This document shows positions 20,164-32,612 of a stretch of DNA of 64,000 nucleotides, in pieces (within the stretch, counting starts at the first letter, position 1; the number at the start of each line of letters is the position of its first letter). Source of the stretch: an uncultured Pseudomonadota bacterium (GTDB lineage Bacteria > Pseudomonadota > Alphaproteobacteria > Rs-D84); contig CASDTC010000004.1 of the NCBI GenBank assembly GCA_949283535.1, forward strand, positions 4,579 to 68,578, in the 5' to 3' direction. The translations under genes and the position numbers were made by a program. The notes under the pieces were generated by a model that worked only from the letters and a program-made list of their open reading frames with translations, did not search any database and was not told where the DNA came from.

Positions 20164-21387
20164 TTAAATTAATGTTTCTTCGATTGCCATTTGTGCGATT
20201 GGCGCGATATATTTTAATTCTGTATCACTGTGCAGTGATATTTTATCAATCACGCCACGGCGCGATAAAATCTGCAATCCGCGTTCAACCAATGGGCGAA
20301 TAAATTCATGCAACAGTCGTCCATATGTCGCCCCCAGAATTCGCATCATATCCGCATTGCGCGCCATGATTTCAGTGGCAGTCATTTCTTTTTCACTTAA
20401 CAGCCCTAATCTGTCCGCCAGTAATGCATGACGAATCCGTTCACGCAAATCTTTTAATACAATCTGGGACACATCGAAATCTGCCCCAGATGATAATGGT
20501 GTCAGACCAGATGAACCAACCGCCTTTGGTATTATCGCCCCCGGGGTCAGATTTATATTCGACAGATTTATAACGCCGTCATCATCCGCCTGCCATATGC
20601 CAGAAACAGCAATTGTTGCGTTCTTTAAAACCAATTCAACGACTTTGTTCGCGGTTTTTATATCTGGCAATGCACGCAATACGGGACCACGCCCATATTG
20701 TTCACCACTGGCAACCGACCAACGAAATATTATGTATGGATTCGTTTCAAATTTGCCCGTTGATACAATATTGTTTTCAATATTACCGCCAACATCCAAC
20801 CATGCGGTAAAGTCTGTATCAATTAAACTTTGTACCAAACGCAATGGGGTTTCCGGATTATTCTTTATTTCATCACGCAGGTTTGCCGGCGGCGTCCATG
20901 TTGGGTATTTTTCCAGTACTTCACGTGCGGGCATCGTTGCCGTGTGAAATACAGCACCATTTAATGTTGCAATATCACGCATTGGAATCGCAGTAAATGA
21001 AAACGCAGATGCCGCACCAATCGGATTTTCCGCCATAAACAGGCATGCTGTCCCCAGTATTATTAAATCCATATAACATTGATGAATTGTTGTATAGAAA
21101 TTTGAATCATTCAGATTTGCACGCAATGCCATTGTTGCCGCGGCGGCATCTGGGGAATCAGCACTTTCTGGGACCAATGATATCCACAGTGATTCTGGTG
21201 GTGTCAGCAATGAATAAATTGATGCCGCCAGATTGTCAACCGCATCGGCGGCGGTGGCATCAAATAATGTTGCGGCATCGTCATCCGCCGTTGGCATGGT
21301 ATAGCGCAACGCACTGTCCCATCTGTTTAACCATGGCGCACGCAAATCTATCGCGCGCCGATACATTTGTTCAAGATTTTTATGCAT
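20164..21387 (-). CDS. phage portal (head-to-tail connector) protein
   Basis: About 408 aa from MHKNLEQMYRRAIDLRAPWLNRW..., podovirus connector-like. Lies 20 nt downstream of the terminase nuclease half. Confidence 0.55.
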   Translation of the reverse strand: MHKNLEQMYRRAIDLRAPWLNRWDSALRYTMPTADDDAATLFDATAADAVDNLAASIYSLLTPPESLWISLVPESADSPDAAAATMALRANLNDSNFYTTIHQCYMDLIILGTACLFMAENPIGAASAFSFTAIPMRDIATLNGAVFHTATMPAREVLEKYPTWTPPANLRDEIKNNPETPLRLVQSLIDTDFTAWLDVGGNIENNIVSTGKFETNPYIIFRWSVASGEQYGRGPVLRALPDIKTANKVVELVLKNATIAVSGIWQADDDGVINLSNINLTPGAIIPKAVGSSGLTPLSSGADFDVSQIVLKDLRERIRHALLADRLGLLSEKEMTATEIMARNADMMRILGATYGRLLHEFIRPLVERGLQILSRRGVIDKISLHSDTELKYIAPIAQMAIEETLI

Positions 21388-21406
21388 GAATTTTTCCTTT
21401 TGTCTG

Positions 21407-22255
21407 CTAAATTTTAAATTCTGTGTTTGCTGTAAATGGGCGGGTGCGTTGCCCCAATGGGCGTACAGGAATTGGTTGTGCACAAATTGCGCCGGCAACC
21501 GCGTCCAGTCCGTCATCATGCCCCAGCCCGCCCAATGGCGACCAACCTAACATTTCTGCAATCAATGGGGTCGCCTGGATACGCTGGTGTGCGTACAGCC
21601 GTCCTGTTGTTAAAACAGGTTCAATCGCATCTAAAATTCTGGATTCTTTGTTTTTATGATTGGTTATGTTAACTATATTAACCGATGTACCGCGATTACG
21701 CGCAACATCACGCATGATTTCAGGCAATGCATTTCCAATACCATTTGTTTCAATGCATATTCGATGTATACTGTGGTGTTGTAAAAAGCCCAATACCATT
21801 TCACACTGGCGTGCCAATGGATGTAATTCTGTATCTGGAACAATTAAATACAGCGCATCATGAATAAATATACATCTGTTTTTATCATCACGGTACAATA
21901 ATACACAAACACTGGCGTCTGATTTTTTACGTCCAGACGATGGATCCCAATATGCCGCCGCGCCTGTTATTAAATGTTCGCCAATGCTGGCGGTATTCAT
22001 ATTAAATTCTGCATCGTATAAATGCAATGCATCTGGGTCCAGGCGGGCGCGTTCAGGCGCAACAAATTCCAACATCATTTGCGCGGAAAAATATCGTGCG
22101 CCAACAGCATGGCGCATTTCATCAATACGCGAAATCGGAAACATTTCTGGCCATGCAGGTGTGCCGTCCCTTGAAATTACAGGTATTTTTAATTCACGAT
22201 ACCCACGCAAAAAAGGCGTTGAAAAAACAAAATTTTTAGATACCATATCTGACAT
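21407..22255 (-). CDS. phage terminase large subunit, C-terminal nuclease half (split gene)
   Basis: RNase-H-like nuclease motifs GRKKSDASVCVLLY and C-terminal GHDDGLDA. Has its own ATG. The N-terminal ATPase half lies 3.3 kb upstream on the same strand. Confidence 0.7.
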   Translation of the reverse strand: MSDMVSKNFVFSTPFLRGYRELKIPVISRDGTPAWPEMFPISRIDEMRHAVGARYFSAQMMLEFVAPERARLDPDALHLYDAEFNMNTASIGEHLITGAAAYWDPSSGRKKSDASVCVLLYRDDKNRCIFIHDALYLIVPDTELHPLARQCEMVLGFLQHHSIHRICIETNGIGNALPEIMRDVARNRGTSVNIVNITNHKNKESRILDAIEPVLTTGRLYAHQRIQATPLIAEMLGWSPLGGLGHDDGLDAVAGAICAQPIPVRPLGQRTRPFTANTEFKI

Positions 22256-23810
22256 GGATTTTACCCCAAAAACATTACCAACAAATCTGGAAGCAGAACA
22301 GGCGGTATTGGCGGCTGTTCTGATGAATAATCGCGCGTTGGAACGCGTGTCTGAATTTTTAAAACCGGAACATTTTTCACATCCGGCACACCAAGAAATT
22401 TACAAACTGGCACAACGACAATTTGCCGCCGGTATTCCGTTTGATATAATCACGGCAAAAAATTATCTGGATCAACAAGGAACCCTGGAATCTGTTGGCG
22501 GTGTTGATTATTTAACCCAATTGGCAGGTGCAGGTGCAACAGTTGTAAATGTTGAACAATACGGTCGCATCGTTTATGAAAATGCAATGCGGCGCGAATT
22601 AATTAACCTGGGGCAATCAATTACAGATGCTGCATTTGTCGAAGATTTAGACAATCCTGTATCTGCACAAATCGAAACCGCCGAACAAAAACTGTTTGAA
22701 ATGGCGTCCAGCGGTGTTTCCGAACGCGAAGTGTCATCAATCGCAACCGCATTGCAAAGCGCCCTGCAAGAAGCAGAAATTGCATACAAGGCAGATGGTA
22801 AATTATCTGGTTTGACAACTGGGTTAAATGCATTAGATAAATCAATCAGTGGGTTGCACCATTCTGATTTAATTATAATTGCGGGGCGTCCTGCAATGGG
22901 TAAAACAACACTGGCAATGAATATCGCATTTAATGCCGCAAATGCAATTCTGTATGGACGCGCAAATGAAAAGTACAAAGGCGCAGTTGCATTTTTCAGT
23001 CTGGAAATGTCGGCATCGCAACTGGCGGCGCGCGTGTTATCATCACAATCCAAAATCCCCGCATCTGCCATGCGCGAAGGTTCATTGACCGATGAAGACT
23101 TTTTAAAAATGTCCCAATATTCATCCGCAATTGGCAAGGTACCATTATATATTGATGATACCCCGGGAATGTCGGTACCAATGATACGAACACGCGCACG
23201 GCGTCTGGCGCGTAAATGCGGCGGAATTGCATTAATCGTAATTGACTATCTGCAATTAATGACATCTCCGGGTGGGCGCCGCAACGATAACCGTGTCCAA
23301 GAAATATCTGAAATCACACGTGGGCTGAAAATGTTGGCAAAAGAATTAGATGTCCCGGTTATCGCCCTGTCCCAGTTGTCGCGCAGTGTGGAATCCCGCG
23401 ATGACAAGCGCCCACAACTGGCAGACTTGCGTGAATCTGGTTCAATTGAACAAGACGCCGATATTGTTATGTTCACATATCGTGAAGAATACTATCTGGA
23501 AAATCGTGATCCATCACAACGCATTTCAGGAAACGCAAATGATAAAATTATCGAAAGTTATCAAAAGCGTTTGGAACGCGCACGCGGTAAAGCCGATGTT
23601 ATAATCGGTAAAAACCGTCATGGTCGACCAGAAACGGTGCATTTGGCGTTCTTTGGCGATTACAGTCTGTTTGATAATTTGGACGAAATTGATGCACGCG
23701 GAATGAACGAATTTTCCGCCCAGCAACAAAGCACACCACAAATTGGTGATGAAGATTTCGAACCAACACCAATTGATACAGATGCAATCCCTGATGATAT
23801 GCCGTTGTAA
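22254..23810 (+). CDS. dnaB: replicative DNA helicase DnaB with an acidic C-terminal extension
   Basis: N-terminal EAEQAVLAAVLMNN, Walker A GRPAMGKTT, KNRHGRPETVHLAF near the C-terminus, then an acidic tail of about 45 aa. ATG overlaps the divergent start of the terminase nuclease half by 2 nt. Confidence 0.85.
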   Translation: MDFTPKTLPTNLEAEQAVLAAVLMNNRALERVSEFLKPEHFSHPAHQEIYKLAQRQFAAGIPFDIITAKNYLDQQGTLESVGGVDYLTQLAGAGATVVNVEQYGRIVYENAMRRELINLGQSITDAAFVEDLDNPVSAQIETAEQKLFEMASSGVSEREVSSIATALQSALQEAEIAYKADGKLSGLTTGLNALDKSISGLHHSDLIIIAGRPAMGKTTLAMNIAFNAANAILYGRANEKYKGAVAFFSLEMSASQLAARVLSSQSKIPASAMREGSLTDEDFLKMSQYSSAIGKVPLYIDDTPGMSVPMIRTRARRLARKCGGIALIVIDYLQLMTSPGGRRNDNRVQEISEITRGLKMLAKELDVPVIALSQLSRSVESRDDKRPQLADLRESGSIEQDADIVMFTYREEYYLENRDPSQRISGNANDKIIESYQKRLERARGKADVIIGKNRHGRPETVHLAFFGDYSLFDNLDEIDARGMNEFSAQQQSTPQIGDEDFEPTPIDTDAIPDDMPL

Positions 23811-23879
23811 AATATTTTCTGCTTGCCATATTTCTGAAAATTGACTAATATTTTGTCAAGAATTGACAAGGAGTTTGCG

Positions 23880-24887
23880 ATGGCCCAAGAAGAAATAATT
23901 TTCCCAAATAATATCAGAAACATTCGATTGGCAAACGGCATGAAGATGACCGAGTTGGCACGCCAGGCAAATTTGTCTTTATCTGCAGTATCCAAGATAG
24001 AAAAAGGTGTTCGCCGTTTAAACCAAAAACAGTTATTGAATATCTGCAATATTTTAGGCTGTAAACTGTCGGATATTTTTATCAAAGAATCTGACGATGT
24101 TGCCGGACAATGGCAAAATGAAATTAAGCGCAGATTAAATGATAACGAAGACAGTGGGCTGAAAATATTTGGCAGCGGGCTGCGCAAAATCAGGCAACAA
24201 TCTGGTAAAACAATTGCCCAGGCGGCAAAAGATGCAGGTATGACATTGTCTGTATATCATAAGATAGAAGTTGGGCAACGCGAAATATATCAAAATGAAA
24301 TCGAGCCATTGGCAAAATCTTTTTCTTATACAGTTGGCGATATGTTTGATAAAATCGCTGCAATGTATAAATCGGGTGAATTAAACAAACAAATTAATAA
24401 GGTTAAGGAACGCGTTAAATCTGTTCTGATTCCGGGCAGTCCATTGTCTGGTATTGACATGCACAGCAGTCTGTATGGTGCAAAACTGTATGACAGTGCG
24501 CGTAAAAAATTGGTTCCTGTATTTGGCACGCCATCTGGCAAATCAATCACTTTTAAAAAATCAGATAAAACCATGATTGTTGCCCCAATGCCACTGGAAG
24601 GACATAAAGGAATTTACGCCGTAATCCCAAATTCAAAACGATTGGGTGGTTTTATTCCTGAAAAATCATATGTATTTGCAGATGCAGATACGCCCGCAGC
24701 GGTTGGTGATTTGGCGGTATGTATCGATACCGATTTTAATTCAATGGATTCAAATGATGTTGCAACCGCACAAATTGTCAGTGTCCGCCAGGATTCCAGG
24801 GGCAAAATATACGGGCAAATCGCATCACCCGAAGAAAAAATTATTGGCAAAAACATGCACAAGGTTGTTATGATTGTAATGGAATAA
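23880..24887 (+). CDS. CI/LexA-like repressor with tandem XRE HTH domains and a C-terminal S24-peptidase-like domain
   Basis: Two HTH_3 modules (MKMTELARQANLSLSAVSKIEKG and KTIAQAAKDAGMTLSVYHKIEVG). C-terminal beta-rich domain with an LexA-like layout. RBS aaggag. Confidence 0.55.
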   Translation: MAQEEIIFPNNIRNIRLANGMKMTELARQANLSLSAVSKIEKGVRRLNQKQLLNICNILGCKLSDIFIKESDDVAGQWQNEIKRRLNDNEDSGLKIFGSGLRKIRQQSGKTIAQAAKDAGMTLSVYHKIEVGQREIYQNEIEPLAKSFSYTVGDMFDKIAAMYKSGELNKQINKVKERVKSVLIPGSPLSGIDMHSSLYGAKLYDSARKKLVPVFGTPSGKSITFKKSDKTMIVAPMPLEGHKGIYAVIPNSKRLGGFIPEKSYVFADADTPAAVGDLAVCIDTDFNSMDSNDVATAQIVSVRQDSRGKIYGQIASPEEKIIGKNMHKVVMIVME

Positions 24888-24911
24888 CATTTCTGTACAG
24901 GGGGGACAAAA

Positions 24912-25592
24912 ATGAACGCAAAAGCCAGCACAACCGCACAAAAATTATTAAACCTGTATCGCCAAGAACATGTTATTTTCGGCGGATGGGCAGCCGTTAA
25001 TCAGGTCTTTGTCAATGAAGCCACCCCAGAAATCTTGCGCGAATTACGCGAATTGCCAACCGGAAAAAATCTGATAAAACATATTGAAAACCTGCGCAGT
25101 GGTAAAACAAAAATGGATTCCATTGAACGCGAACTGTTGCCGTATGGTGGATTAATGGCGGAAACCATTGCAACCGTACCGTTGACATCGAATGAATGGA
25201 ATGAATTAGAATCTGGGATAAATTCATTTACCACCGACCAAGAAGGATTAGACCGAATACAACAATTAAATGTTATAAAAAAATTTGGCGACCAATGGAT
25301 TGTTGCAATACGTGCGGCATTATCAGAACGACCAGATTTATTAGAAAAATGGTCAATCGTTACAAAAACATATCGTGCATATTATTTATGGAAGGTTGCC
25401 AGCGATATGCTGAACCAACCATTATCTGAACGCGCACGCGCACAATTACAGGCCGACATGCCAGAATATGAAACATATCTGCCAATGTTTGGCGATAAGG
25501 GTACAGAACTGTTAGAAAAACTGCGTTCATTTATTACAACGATGAAACCGATTGAAACAGATAACGCCCCAGATGCCCCAACATCTATCTAG
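24912..25592 (+). CDS. hypothetical protein
   Basis: 226 aa with no recognisable motifs. Stops converge on the terminase ATPase half with a 4-nt overlap. Confidence 0.45.
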   Translation: MNAKASTTAQKLLNLYRQEHVIFGGWAAVNQVFVNEATPEILRELRELPTGKNLIKHIENLRSGKTKMDSIERELLPYGGLMAETIATVPLTSNEWNELESGINSFTTDQEGLDRIQQLNVIKKFGDQWIVAIRAALSERPDLLEKWSIVTKTYRAYYLWKVASDMLNQPLSERARAQLQADMPEYETYLPMFGDKGTELLEKLRSFITTMKPIETDNAPDAPTSI

Positions 25593-26245
25593 CCCCCATC
25601 GTTATCATGTGTTCTGTAAATCGTATCCATTGTATGTGGTGTGCCAATATATAACATTGTCCCAGTGGGGGATAAAATAAAATCCAATTCACGCAATCGT
25701 TCCCGCAATGCCGTGCGTTTTTGTGTGGTGTTTGATGTGTTTGGGACCTCTATATCATCACAAATAATTAAATCTGCACGCATTCCTGTAATATTGCCAT
25801 GAATGCCTTGGCACATAACGGATGGTTCGCGTATTCCAATCGCACGATTTATGGTTATTCGACCATTTGCCCATTCTTTTTTATTTTTAGGAATCAGATT
25901 TGCACATCGTGGATGATTTTCCAATATATGACGAATATGCGATACCATACGCGTTGCCAAACTGTTTTCAGCAGACAATATCAGGATTCTGGTTTCTGGG
26001 TACAGGTATAAAATACATGCTGCAAATATACCAACAACTGTTGATTTACCAGAATGCCGAAATGCCATCAACAACCCACGATGCGGTGGCGTTTCCCATA
26101 TTGATACTAAAAATTCCATGATTCGCCGGTGATGTGCCGGCGTGGTCAGTCCCAATATATCGTTCCATTCATCCAGAAATTCATAAAACGCCGTAATCAT
26201 CGCGATTTTCATTTGGTGCAGGTTCTGTAATACTGCCATAATCAT
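25589..26245 (-). CDS. phage terminase large subunit, N-terminal ATPase half (split gene)
   Basis: Walker A AFRHSGKST, Walker B ADLIICDD, coupling motif YIGTPHT. Ends shortly after the ATPase domain. Confidence 0.7.
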   Translation of the reverse strand: MIMAVLQNLHQMKIAMITAFYEFLDEWNDILGLTTPAHHRRIMEFLVSIWETPPHRGLLMAFRHSGKSTVVGIFAACILYLYPETRILILSAENSLATRMVSHIRHILENHPRCANLIPKNKKEWANGRITINRAIGIREPSVMCQGIHGNITGMRADLIICDDIEVPNTSNTTQKRTALRERLRELDFILSPTGTMLYIGTPHTMDTIYRTHDNDGG

Positions 26246-26729
26246 TTATTAATTTTGGCAATGCATTTTCCAGAACAGATACCAAATTCCCATACAATCC
26301 CATTACCGCCCCACCGGTTAGTTTATCTTGGATAACACTTAAATTATATTCCAAAAATGCCATCACATTATTGTGGGTGTTTTTCCATTCGGTTAAATCA
26401 ATATCTATTTCATGTAAATCACGAAAGGCTTCGACCAAAAAATTAAAATCAGAATTTAAATTTTCTGGGTCTATTTTTGCAGTAGGCTGGTAATCAATAA
26501 CACGCGTTAATGCAATTTGGCGAAAAATATCAATTTGTGCGCCTGATTCTGGGGCAATGGGGAAGACAACCGTGCCACCATCAAAATCGTCATTTGCAAC
26601 AACCGCATAATTTGCAGAATCCATAACAGATTCATTAATCGCAACCCGAACATCTGCATCCTGGAAAAAAGGGAATGCAAAAATATACTGCGTTGTTTCG
26701 CCATCGCCGGTATATGATACTTTATACAT
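26181..26729 (-). CDS. T7 gp17-like tail fibre, N-terminal tail-attachment domain only
   Basis: MYKVSYTGDGETTQYIFAFPFFQDADVRVAIN resembles T7 gp17 VLTYQLDGSNRDFNIPFEYLARKFVVVTLIG. Only 182 aa. 3' end overlaps the terminase ATPase half out of frame. Confidence 0.45.
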   Translation of the reverse strand: MYKVSYTGDGETTQYIFAFPFFQDADVRVAINESVMDSANYAVVANDDFDGGTVVFPIAPESGAQIDIFRQIALTRVIDYQPTAKIDPENLNSDFNFLVEAFRDLHEIDIDLTEWKNTHNNVMAFLEYNLSVIQDKLTGGAVMGLYGNLVSVLENALPKLINDYGSITEPAPNENRDDYGVL

Positions 26730-29365: not shown

Positions 29366-29420
29366 TTGTGTTATCCAATTTTATATTAAAAAAACGGGGT
29401 GCCGTGGCACCCCAATTAAA

Positions 29421-30512: not shown

Positions 30513-30718
30513 TATTTATTTCCCTTGGTTAAAAAAATTAAAACAAGCGCCAATATGCGCCGATAAAATTTTGTATTATGGTTATGCAATTTAATTGCGC
30601 CATTTAACAAAACATGCGGGTCCACACGGGATTGTCCAAATAAAAAATATTCAGTCAGACTGATATAATCCGACTGAATATTTCAAAATAAAAATCCCCG
30701 CAATTGCGGGGAATTATA

Positions 30719-31090
30719 TTATTTTCTTTTTGCACATGTTTTTTTTGCCGCTGGCTTTTTCGCCGCAACTTTTTTAACAGGTGCCTTTTTTACTGCTGCC
30801 TTTGCGACTGGTTTTTTCGCCGCAACTTTTTTTGCAACCGTTTTTTTTGCAACCGTTTTTTTTGCAACTGGCTTTTTCACTGCAACTTTCTTTGCCGCTG
30901 GTTTCTTGGCAACCGCAACTTTTTTAACAGCCGGTTTTTTCGCTGCAACTTTTTTTACAGCAGGCTTTTTTGCAACTGGTTTCTTTGCCACGGCAACTTT
31001 CTTTGCCGCAGGTTTCTTTGCAGCCGGTTTTGCCGCTGGCTTTTTCGCAGCAGGTTTTTTGGCGGCTGGCTTTAAGAATGTGAATGCCAT
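30719..31090 (-). CDS. lysine/alanine-rich histone H1-like DNA-binding protein
   Basis: MAFTFLKP followed by about 20 KPAAKK/KKVAVAKKP repeats. Good RBS ggagagaag. Not a CRISPR array despite the nucleotide periodicity. Confidence 0.7.
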   Translation of the reverse strand: MAFTFLKPAAKKPAAKKPAAKPAAKKPAAKKVAVAKKPVAKKPAVKKVAAKKPAVKKVAVAKKPAAKKVAVKKPVAKKTVAKKTVAKKVAAKKPVAKAAVKKAPVKKVAAKKPAAKKTCAKRK

Positions 31091-31196
31091 TCTTCTCTCC
31101 TTCTTCATTTTTTGGATAGAACAAATTTGTTTTGTTCTTACTTTATATTTTATATGAAACAAAAATATTAGTAAAGAAGAAAGTGCATTTTTTTCA

Positions 31197-31853
31197 TTAC
31201 GAATATAATTTTTTAAATCCATTTTCTATTTTGCGAACATATTCTGGATCATAATCACGCCAATATTTTGGATCACGCATCATGCGACGCAATTCAGAAT
31301 CAGATAAATTTTTTATATCTTCATCATCGGTACGAACACTGGGTTCCATCGATTGCATCATTCGGTATACGCCTTGGATTCCCTGGGGTGTGGCACATAA
31401 TGCATCAAATGCATCACGCGGTAAATATTTTTGTCCGAATGAATTTATTGCGCGTAATGCATCATTCATTTTTTCTGTTGTGCCAAAAAAATTTTTTAAT
31501 TCTGCAATTGCATTTGATTCATTTTGCATATCAAATAATTCTGTTAATACGGGTGATAAAAATTCTTCGGCAATTTGATAAATTTTTTCAACCTGGGTTG
31601 ATGTTAATCCAATTTCAAAAAATTTTTCACGCACTGCGTCATCATCAAATAACTGATTCGTTGGATATTCTGATGCAGATTCTGGAACACCAATTGCACG
31701 ATTAAATTTTGCACGCGATGCACCATCAGCATCATTGCCAGGCACAGATATCATCGTTCCAATTTTCTTTTCTAATTCAATATATGATTTTAACAACGCA
31801 TCTGTGTTTAATGTTCCGTCTTTATTCAGAAATTTTTCTGGAATGTTTTCCAT
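31197..31853 (-). CDS. capsid assembly scaffolding-like protein
   Basis: 219 aa, helical and acidic, positioned like T7 gp9 immediately upstream of the capsid gene. Confidence 0.45.
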   Translation of the reverse strand: MENIPEKFLNKDGTLNTDALLKSYIELEKKIGTMISVPGNDADGASRAKFNRAIGVPESASEYPTNQLFDDDAVREKFFEIGLTSTQVEKIYQIAEEFLSPVLTELFDMQNESNAIAELKNFFGTTEKMNDALRAINSFGQKYLPRDAFDALCATPQGIQGVYRMMQSMEPSVRTDDEDIKNLSDSELRRMMRDPKYWRDYDPEYVRKIENGFKKLYS

Positions 31854-32043
31854 GTTTTTTTCCTTTGGTTTCACTGGATTTGCGCAAGAAATAAATTCCG
31901 CCCAATGTAAATACAGATTGCAACATAGTAAATATATCGGTATCGCCAACCATATATGCACCAATTGCAGACAATATACCAATTCCTGAAATGATATATG
32001 TTCGATGTCCGGATAAAAATCCGCCACTGATAATTTTTCGCAT
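31822..32043 (-). CDS. small membrane protein, possible holin
   Basis: 73 aa with TM segments (IISGIGILSAIGAYMV) and a charged C-terminus. Lies between the hydrolase and scaffold genes. Confidence 0.3.
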   Translation of the reverse strand: MRKIISGGFLSGHRTYIISGIGILSAIGAYMVGDTDIFTMLQSVFTLGGIYFLRKSSETKGKKHGKHSRKISE

Positions 32044-32056
32044 GATTGTTTTCCGA

Positions 32057-32467
32057 TTATAAATAAAACAACAGTCCATCTATATCTGCGATATATCCGC
32101 GCGATGTTGACCATGCCGGCATTTTATCTGCATGATGAAAACGCGTTGCGCCATTGCATGAATCTGGTAACGCGCCATGCAACATTCGTGATACCACACG
32201 CAGACACATCTGAAATTTATTGTCAGATGCATTAACAAACAATAATTTATTGTTTTCAGATTTTGAATCCAGTGAATTAAATAATTCTGAATCCGATATT
32301 ATATCTGAATAATCACGACCAGTGACATGGGCAATATTTGCAATCATTGATGCCATTGCTTCGACCAATCGTAATGTTGATGCATGTGTTTCAGCATATA
32401 CCACCCGTGCAATTTGATATAATATGGCGCGCGATTTATCTGGATTGTTTATCAGTGTTAATTGCAT
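32057..32467 (-). CDS. SleB-like cell wall hydrolase (Hydrolase_2 family)
   Basis: ARVVYAETHASTLRLVEAMASMIANIAH matches the A..VY.EA...E...G..AVA.VI.NR motif. Likely the endolysin of the phage cluster. Confidence 0.6.
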   Translation of the reverse strand: MQLTLINNPDKSRAILYQIARVVYAETHASTLRLVEAMASMIANIAHVTGRDYSDIISDSELFNSLDSKSENNKLLFVNASDNKFQMCLRVVSRMLHGALPDSCNGATRFHHADKMPAWSTSRGYIADIDGLLFYL

Positions 32468-32612
32468 TTGACAATCCCCCCGTTGTTGCAAATAAAAACG
32501 GCACGCAATAAATGCGTGCCATAAAATAAAAAATCCGCCATACGCGGACATAATCTTTCTGATTATGTGTTATATATTATCATAAATTGGATATAAAGTC
32601 AAGATAATATTT

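Follow-up and report, generated by a model that had tools for sequence, protein, structure and literature searches.

In the gut alphaproteobacterium Candidatus Enterousia, whose genome is about 0.9 Mb, a lysine- and alanine-rich repeat protein (the K/A protein) is encoded between the scaffold and major capsid genes of a phage-derived structural cluster. The gene is real, appears to be fixed in the Enterousia clade sampled, and looks like a self-contained, moron-like transcription unit with a predicted promoter, a palindrome, a ribosome-binding site (RBS), a single open reading frame (ORF) and a terminator. We see roughly an even chance that its product is a histone-H1/Hc2-like polycation that serves as a nucleoid-associated or compaction protein of the host and is expressed independently of the head genes. 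The parts of the unit are listed below, with positions counted in the window, the whole stretch of 64,000 nucleotides that was analysed.

31147 to 31175, minus strand: sigma-70-like promoter, TTTACT-17-TAAAAT, in the 106-nt gap past the scaffold stop codon
31118 to 31138, minus strand: perfect palindrome AGAACAAA-N5-TTTGTTCT, between the -10 element and the RBS, at the predicted 5' end of the transcript
31097 to 31102, minus strand: strong RBS, AAGGAG, 6 nt before the ATG
30719 to 31090, minus strand: coding sequence of the K/A protein, 123 aa plus stop, 59.2 bits to Pfam HC2, with orthologues in 107 loci
30685 to 30712, minus strand: intrinsic terminator, GC-rich hairpin CCCCGCAATTGCGGGG plus T-run, beginning 6 nt past the K/A stop
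30644 to 30684, minus strand: second hairpin, 18 bp, then T's, between the K/A terminator and the region upstream of the capsid gene

Read from the window, the ORF runs from an ATG at 31090-31088 to a TAA at 30721-30719. The earlier note had given these bounds exactly, on what proves to be the minus strand, but its count of 124 residues includes the stop. The product begins MAFTFLKPAAKKPAAKK, ends KKTCAKRK and reads MAFTFLKPAAKKPAAKKPAAKPAAKK...KKPAAKKTCAKRK. It is 36.6% lysine, 30.1% alanine, 14.6% valine and 10.6% proline (92% for the four together), has no acidic residues, and carries a net charge of about +45 at a pI of 11.5. With an N-terminal motif MAFTFLKP and a C-terminus TCAKRK, the protein is made up of about 22 pentapeptides of the form x-A/V/P-x-K-K (xAxKK), among them PAAKK six times, VAAKK three times, PVAKK, PAVKK, TVAKK and others, and the KK pairs are spaced five residues apart in 15 of 19 intervals. 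AlphaFold2 returns a mean pLDDT of 58.7, a pTM of 0.11 and no secondary structure, and the protein is predicted to be intrinsically disordered. By composition, charge and pentapeptide units, it is the lysine/alanine-repeat, histone-H1-tail-like polycation that had first been proposed.

The true start is the ATG at 31090, with AAGGAG 6 nt upstream. An upstream ATG at 31222, from which public gene calls derive a 167-aa product, was rejected; in other species a stop codon directly precedes the ...KERRM stretch. An exact-sequence look-up of the 123-aa product found nothing, since the public calls begin at the upstream ATG, and the gene was reached through the capsid gene instead. In a set of such calls (L151-L166), the over-extended product has 162 or 167 residues and overlaps the scaffold gene. 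Several assembly contigs stop inside the K/A repeat (L013, L018, L042, L049, L052, L075, L079 and others). Between contigs that end in the repeat and calls that are over-extended, the gene is systematically truncated or mis-annotated in databases.

One copy of the K/A ORF is found, at the same place and in the same orientation, in each of 107 related loci (2.1 Mb of fetched DNA), which is far beyond chance. It is carried by every locus whose capsid is at least 80% identical and whose sequence reaches at least about 350 nt upstream of the capsid gene, and across loci it ends 200-270 nt ahead of the capsid start. A second K/A-type gene was found neither in the 64-kb window nor in the 2.1 Mb of fetched loci. 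The earlier note had proposed looking for the same insertion in the clusters of relatives, and had held that absence or frameshift in close relatives would tell against the gene. The ORF is intact in all relatives with at least 80% capsid identity and enough upstream sequence, but relatives at 75-78% capsid identity are without the gene. The 86 complete orthologues span 72-159 aa (median 116.5) and average 37% lysine, 31% alanine, 14% valine, 11% proline and 0.28 acidic residues per protein. Common to them are a short, hydrophobic N-terminal stretch, which in most reads MAFxFLKP, and a basic C-terminus; 70 of 95 orthologues have a cysteine among their last 12 residues.

The genes around the K/A gene are those of a T7-like structural cluster, of which the main members are as follows.

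32057 to 32551, minus strand: SleB-type cell-wall hydrolase
31822 to 32043, minus strand: conserved 73-aa ORF, between the SleB-like hydrolase and the scaffold gene
31197 to 31853, minus strand: T7-type scaffold (capsid assembly) protein, 218 aa from MENIPEKF, PF05396 38.3 bits
29676 to 30512, minus strand: major capsid protein, 278 aa, PF19821 243.5 bits, phrog_3437
26181 to 26729, minus strand: T7 tail-fibre N-terminal domain protein, 182 aa
25589 to 26245, minus strand: N-terminal half of the large terminase, 218 aa, phrog_38 positions 267-459
21407 to 22255, minus strand: C-terminal half of the large terminase, phrog_38 positions 466-700
20164 to 21519, minus strand: portal, PF12236

Past the capsid gene, the minus strand continues with a 75-aa ORF, tail-tube A-like and tail-tube B-like genes, a 115-aa ORF, the fibre N-domain gene and the N-terminal half of the terminase. 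A 3.3-kb block on the opposite strand (22260-25592, plus), with orf226, a gene for an XRE-family regulator and the replicative helicase gene dnaB, splits the terminase, and birA flanks the other side of the cluster. The order (birA, hydrolase, scaffold, K/A, capsid, tail genes, terminase N-half, then orf226, xre and dnaB, then terminase C-half and portal) is syntenic in about 75 species, measured from a lexA-like gene and birA as far as dnaB. Likewise in about 75 species, the terminase N-half is found beside orf226, xre and dnaB. Relative to the window, the capsid protein has a median identity of 88%, a figure slightly favoured because loci were picked by capsid similarity; the medians of DnaB, the terminase N-half and BirA are 83%, 78% and 74%, and the scaffold protein has a median of 74% across species. 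In a phage-like contig (L135), the terminase appears uninterrupted across the split point.

Several smaller features accompany these genes. The 73-aa ORF is concealed within an over-extended call of 305 aa for the scaffold ORF; judged only by eye from its sequence, it would have two hydrophobic helices along with a basic C-terminus, as a holin might, and it could make up a lysis cassette together with the hydrolase. Of the tail-fibre gene, only the N-terminal (tail-attachment) domain of 182 aa is left, and receptor-binding parts of the fibre have evidently been lost or are encoded elsewhere. A match to the fibre N-domain is absent in 27 of the 81 loci L001-L081, some of which lie on contigs that stop short of it.

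At E <= 1e-10, 3596 relatives of the capsid protein are present in the database. When one genome per GTDB species was scanned, capsid relatives turned up in 292 stretches, the best 80 of which are 84-96% identical, and many of these best 80 are labelled Candidatus Enterousia or uncultured gut Alphaproteobacteria/Rickettsiales. Enterousia (order Rs-D84) is described as a gut lineage that is uncultured and whose genomes measure about 0.75-1.0 Mb (PMC12306168). The structural genes appear to have passed vertically, at one fixed site in the chromosome and under purifying selection, and the flanking ORFs scanned gave no integrase or replication-module match. Because it is syntenic in about 75 species and without such matches, the cluster is best read as a vertically inherited, domesticated podovirus-like module and not as an active prophage. 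It may be a podovirus-type element, undescribed so far, that resembles a gene transfer agent (GTA); a literature search for an Enterousia/Rs-D84 phage-like cluster or a T7-like GTA found none.

A cluster of this kind raises the prospect that the K/A protein is a particle component, namely a protamine-like internal protein of the podovirus-like particle that is packaged with the DNA or condenses it beforehand. The cluster looks functional, as its capsid is better conserved across species (median 88%) than DnaB (83%). Matches to the T7 internal core proteins (gp14-16) or to a small terminase were not seen in the cluster, the large terminase is in two halves, and the K/A protein would on this account stand in for what is missing or split. 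The conserved hydrophobic N-terminus and the cysteine near the C-terminus could mediate docking or cross-linking. The K/A gene also lies between the scaffold and capsid genes in 107 of 107 loci; a fixed position would indeed be expected of a particle-linked role, but the whole neighbourhood is syntenic, so that position argues little either way. We nonetheless rate a role in the particle as rather unlikely, on account of what occupies the same slot in relatives and of how the gene appears to be expressed.

The lineages that have the same cluster at 75-78% capsid identity carry no K/A protein and instead have a membrane protein in the slot. In L134 (capsid 78% identical), which has the same order from birA, hydrolase and scaffold to terminase, a 188-aa polytopic membrane protein fills the slot (2121-2687, plus). 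Its homologue (BLASTP E = 1e-8) in L133 (capsid 75% identical) lies beside the capsid gene in the opposite orientation (1-870, minus), and this membrane protein is absent from every K/A-bearing locus. The slot of L137 holds a different membrane protein, with arginine-rich tails (2089-2697, plus), and that of the Pelagibacter phage Hodr holds a gp13-like gene (L167, 3386-3961, plus). In most of the phage-like contigs with capsids 30-68% identical (L135-L150) and in L168 (64%), the scaffold-capsid gap is about 30-200 nt, and the K/A gene is absent in the phage-like relatives L135-L150. The claim that T7-like phages place nothing here consequently holds for most phage-like relatives, in which scaffold and capsid genes are adjacent, but not for those that carry unrelated genes. 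The scaffold-capsid junction appears to be a variable accessory slot in this phage lineage, and since the slot holds unrelated genes or none in relatives, the K/A gene would be a lineage-specific occupant and not an ancestral head gene. No PHROG phage family matches the K/A protein, and the gene seems to be without a recognisable phage origin.

T7 makes its minor capsid product, gp10B, through a frameshift at the 3' end of the gene for the capsid protein, with which it has the N-terminus in common. The earlier note had mentioned the minor capsid product for this position, and a product of the gp10B type was rejected: the K/A gene precedes the capsid gene, starts at an ATG of its own, and is set apart from it by 206 nt and two hairpin terminators.

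The signals around the gene are conserved along with it. Promoter hexamers occur in 83 of 83 species, with a 17-nt spacer in 81 and an 18-nt spacer in two, and AAGGAGAG at the RBS is kept across species. The palindrome is unique in the 64-kb window, and its arms are invariant in 81 of 83 species around a spacer of 3-7 nt. It may be a stem-loop in the 5' untranslated region or an operator; the stem-loop fits better than an operator of fixed spacing, because the arms are fixed and the spacer is variable, although the arms show no covariation that would decide between the two. A stable hairpin follows within 60 nt past the K/A stop in 86 of 86 species, with stem and loop sequences that differ between species, and the arms of the second hairpin (CAGTC...GACTGAA) are partly conserved. 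An Rfam search around the K/A gene gave sub-threshold chance matches only. A predicted promoter and a terminator hairpin thus flank a single gene that is inserted between genes adjacent in most phage-like relatives, as in a moron.

These signals also bear on the neighbouring genes. The terminators insulate the capsid gene from the K/A gene, so the capsid gene must rely on the region that precedes it. Past the capsid gene, the 75-aa ORF is followed by a strong hairpin of terminator type, GGGGTGCCACGGCACCCC plus T-run (29366-29420). With hairpins on both sides, the capsid gene and the 75-aa ORF are bracketed by terminators, and the hairpin past them recalls the T-phi terminator after gene 10 in T7. 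Comparison of the region upstream of the K/A gene with those upstream of other cluster genes gave no meaningful shared 8-10-mers, another point against a particle component. No terminator was found between the scaffold and K/A genes, so that read-through could co-transcribe the two, as a particle component would have it. The gene had been described as part of a head-assembly operon, which is borne out by its location between the scaffold and capsid genes but not by its predicted, conserved promoter and its own terminator; the step from position to a packaged protein is weakened by both.

Since the unit is self-contained, we favour expression of the K/A protein on its own, as a nucleoid protein of the host. 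The gene would be expressed and regulated from its sigma-70-type promoter and would not be an obligatory co-transcribed component of head assembly, its location in the capsid cluster reflecting insertion into a permissive accessory slot. About 45 lysines would bind nucleic-acid phosphates without sequence specificity, and the protein would neutralise charge and bridge and compact DNA, like the linker histone H1 tail, Hc2 and BpH1. We infer nucleic-acid binding from composition, and likewise compaction and a cellular rather than a particle target. A more specific proposal, that the K/A protein is the dedicated protamine-like DNA condenser of an undescribed T7-like, GTA-like particle fixed in the Enterousia genomes of about 0.9 Mb, strikes us as doubtful.

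A polycation of this type might also act on something other than DNA, either as an RNA- or ribosome-binding factor (a chaperone, or a factor of the translation-silencing or hibernation type) or through an acidic protein partner. Hc1 offers a precedent, in that the title of Pedersen et al. 1994 (cited in PMC12619734) has it binding both DNA and RNA and repressing transcription and translation in vitro. When 5.8 billion proteins were searched with the K/A protein, only 21 weak compositional matches came back, K/A-rich tails fused to unrelated domains such as SWIB, ribosomal L30 and RHH, and its PDB matches are confined to the K/A-rich N-terminal tails of actinobacterial SigA/HrdB (E ~1e-3); tails of this kind lend the proposal some further support. 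Nothing in the K/A sequence is RNA-specific, however: it has no RNA-binding domain and no linkage to ribosomal genes. We regard a non-DNA target as improbable, with the reservation that sequence by itself does not separate DNA from RNA or ribosomes as the target.

The repeat had further been described as perfectly periodic in the DNA, and from this the gene had been suggested to be a contingency or length-variable locus. Tandem Repeats Finder shows a degenerate repeat instead, with a period of 30 in 5.6 copies at 70% matches and a period of 15 at 69%. One perfect repeat is reported by the program within the gene.

30827 to 30868: sole perfect DNA repeat in the K/A gene, 15 nt x 2.8 copies, encoding KKTVA KKTVA

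The codons for lysine (AAA 33, AAG 12) and alanine (GCA 18, GCG 11, GCC 4, GCT 4) are mixed. The locus does vary in length, as had been suggested, from 72 to 159 aa between species and between 118 and 123 aa among near-identical relatives. Seventeen complete alleles from relatives with capsid proteins 96-100% identical are all intact and are 118 or 123 aa only, the two classes being one 15-nt unit apart (alignment columns 229-243). Converted from alignment columns, this indel lies at about 30848-30862, within the sole perfect repeat. In five comparisons of the window allele with same-length alleles of close relatives, 24-27 codon differences are synonymous and 10-11 non-synonymous, and the listed alleles show replacements of A, V, P and T by one another.

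A phase-variable contingency locus, in which the repeat tract toggles expression or quickly changes the product, might be read from the differences in length between species, from the one-unit difference among close relatives, and from the several assemblies whose contigs terminate within the gene. Such a locus is very unlikely here, as the unit of 15 or 30 nt is a multiple of three and only about 70% identical, all K/A alleles are in frame, the 17 close-relative alleles fall into two length classes only, and the gene contains no homopolymer or short-unit tract of the phase-variation type. Since the repeat is degenerate and varies only in frame, we do not retain the contingency part of the suggestion. 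Least probable of all, to the point of being negligible, is that low-complexity DNA holds a spurious ORF or that the opposite strand (likewise open, 30704-31075, 123 aa, F/C/R-rich) is the coding one, a reading which is ruled out by retention of the ORF in 107 loci and by the mostly synonymous substitutions in the K/A frame, and to which the orientation of RBS, ATG, promoter and terminator, all suited to the minus strand, is also opposed.

The K/A gene is the sole H1-like repeat gene type in the 2.1 Mb of related loci, and the gut lineage in which it appears fixed is uncultured, with a tiny genome. If its product is simply a nucleoid protein, the gene would be useful as a marker of a symbiont of the human and animal gut that is still unstudied, and it would be a candidate for a global regulator there. 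Were it instead linked to the particle, we would know of no earlier lysine/alanine component of protamine type in a tailed-phage-type capsid, and the protein would give a handle on a new kind of domesticated podovirus. Its repeats break metagenome assemblies and are mis-annotated in public calls. The surrounding domesticated T7-like cluster, with a capsid more conserved than DnaB in the species sampled, is more unusual than the K/A gene itself.

Morons are independent transcription units inserted between phage genes (PMC3594210). Like the morons of HK97- and lambda-like prophages, the K/A unit places one gene, with its promoter and terminator, between two structural genes. Unlike them, it is not cargo that varies from strain to strain: it is fixed throughout a bacterial genus, and its cluster is domesticated and non-mobile.

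Protamines and the adenovirus core proteins VII and mu are short polycations that condense DNA for packaging, and mammalian protamines use cysteine cross-links. The cysteine in the C-terminal region of 70 of 95 K/A orthologues is a point of likeness to the mammalian protamines. Protamines, VII and mu are arginine-rich, whereas the K/A protein is lysine/alanine-rich and is known here from its gene alone.

Among bacterial histone-like families, the K/A protein had been said to resemble Hc1, AlgP and BpH1. It scores 59.2 bits against Pfam HC2 (PF07382; gathering cutoff 40), a match that falls on the low-complexity repeats and so shows shared composition rather than ancestry. It scores below the cutoffs of NCBIfam histone_lik_HC2 (NF038052; 42.3 against 135) and of the Burkholderiales H1-like family of the BpH1 type (NF038053; 53.5 against 80). 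The Pfam scan gave no Hc1 match (PF07432) at E <= 0.01, and the Pfam and NCBIfam scans reported no AlgP-type family. Of the resemblances first named, that to BpH1 holds by composition, below threshold, and those to Hc1 and AlgP drop out; Hc2 is matched instead. As the database matches are compositional only, they do not establish common ancestry with Hc2 or BpH1. No PADLOC match was found for the K/A protein.

Hc2 (HctB) of Chlamydia trachomatis is an H1-like protein that binds DNA, condenses the nucleoid and is made late in a developmental cycle. Like Hc2, the K/A protein consists almost entirely of lysine/alanine-rich pentapeptides without a globular domain. Hc2 varies in size through the number of its lysine-rich pentamers (PMC2848022), and in the K/A protein the number of lysine-rich pentapeptide repeats is likewise variable, both between species and between close relatives. 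In contrast to Hc2, the K/A protein is about half as long and belongs to an unrelated lineage, and its gene lies inside a phage-derived structural cluster; a developmental cycle is not known for its host.

Small size and K/A/P-rich repeats are shared with BpH1 of Bordetella and the Burkholderiales H1-like proteins, and NF038053 is the best NCBIfam match (residues 1-122). BpH1 shows repeat-number polymorphism, and it differs from the K/A protein in its N- and C-termini and genomic context. AlgP (AlgR3) of Pseudomonas has a lysine/alanine/proline repeat tail of KPAA units that resembles the H1 tail; unlike the K/A protein, it has tetrapeptide units and a sizeable non-repetitive N-terminal part. 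The C-terminal domain of eukaryotic linker histone H1 is disordered, AKKPAAKK-like, and condenses DNA by charge neutralisation. The K/A protein is like this tail in composition and proposed mode of action, not by homology: Pfam gives no match to the winged-helix Linker_histone domain, and AlphaFold2 finds no folded domain. Histone-H1-like repeat proteins act in nucleoid compaction or gene silencing in a few bacteria (Chlamydia, Bordetella, Pseudomonas and Coxiella); the K/A protein adds to these, and its genomic place is unusual.
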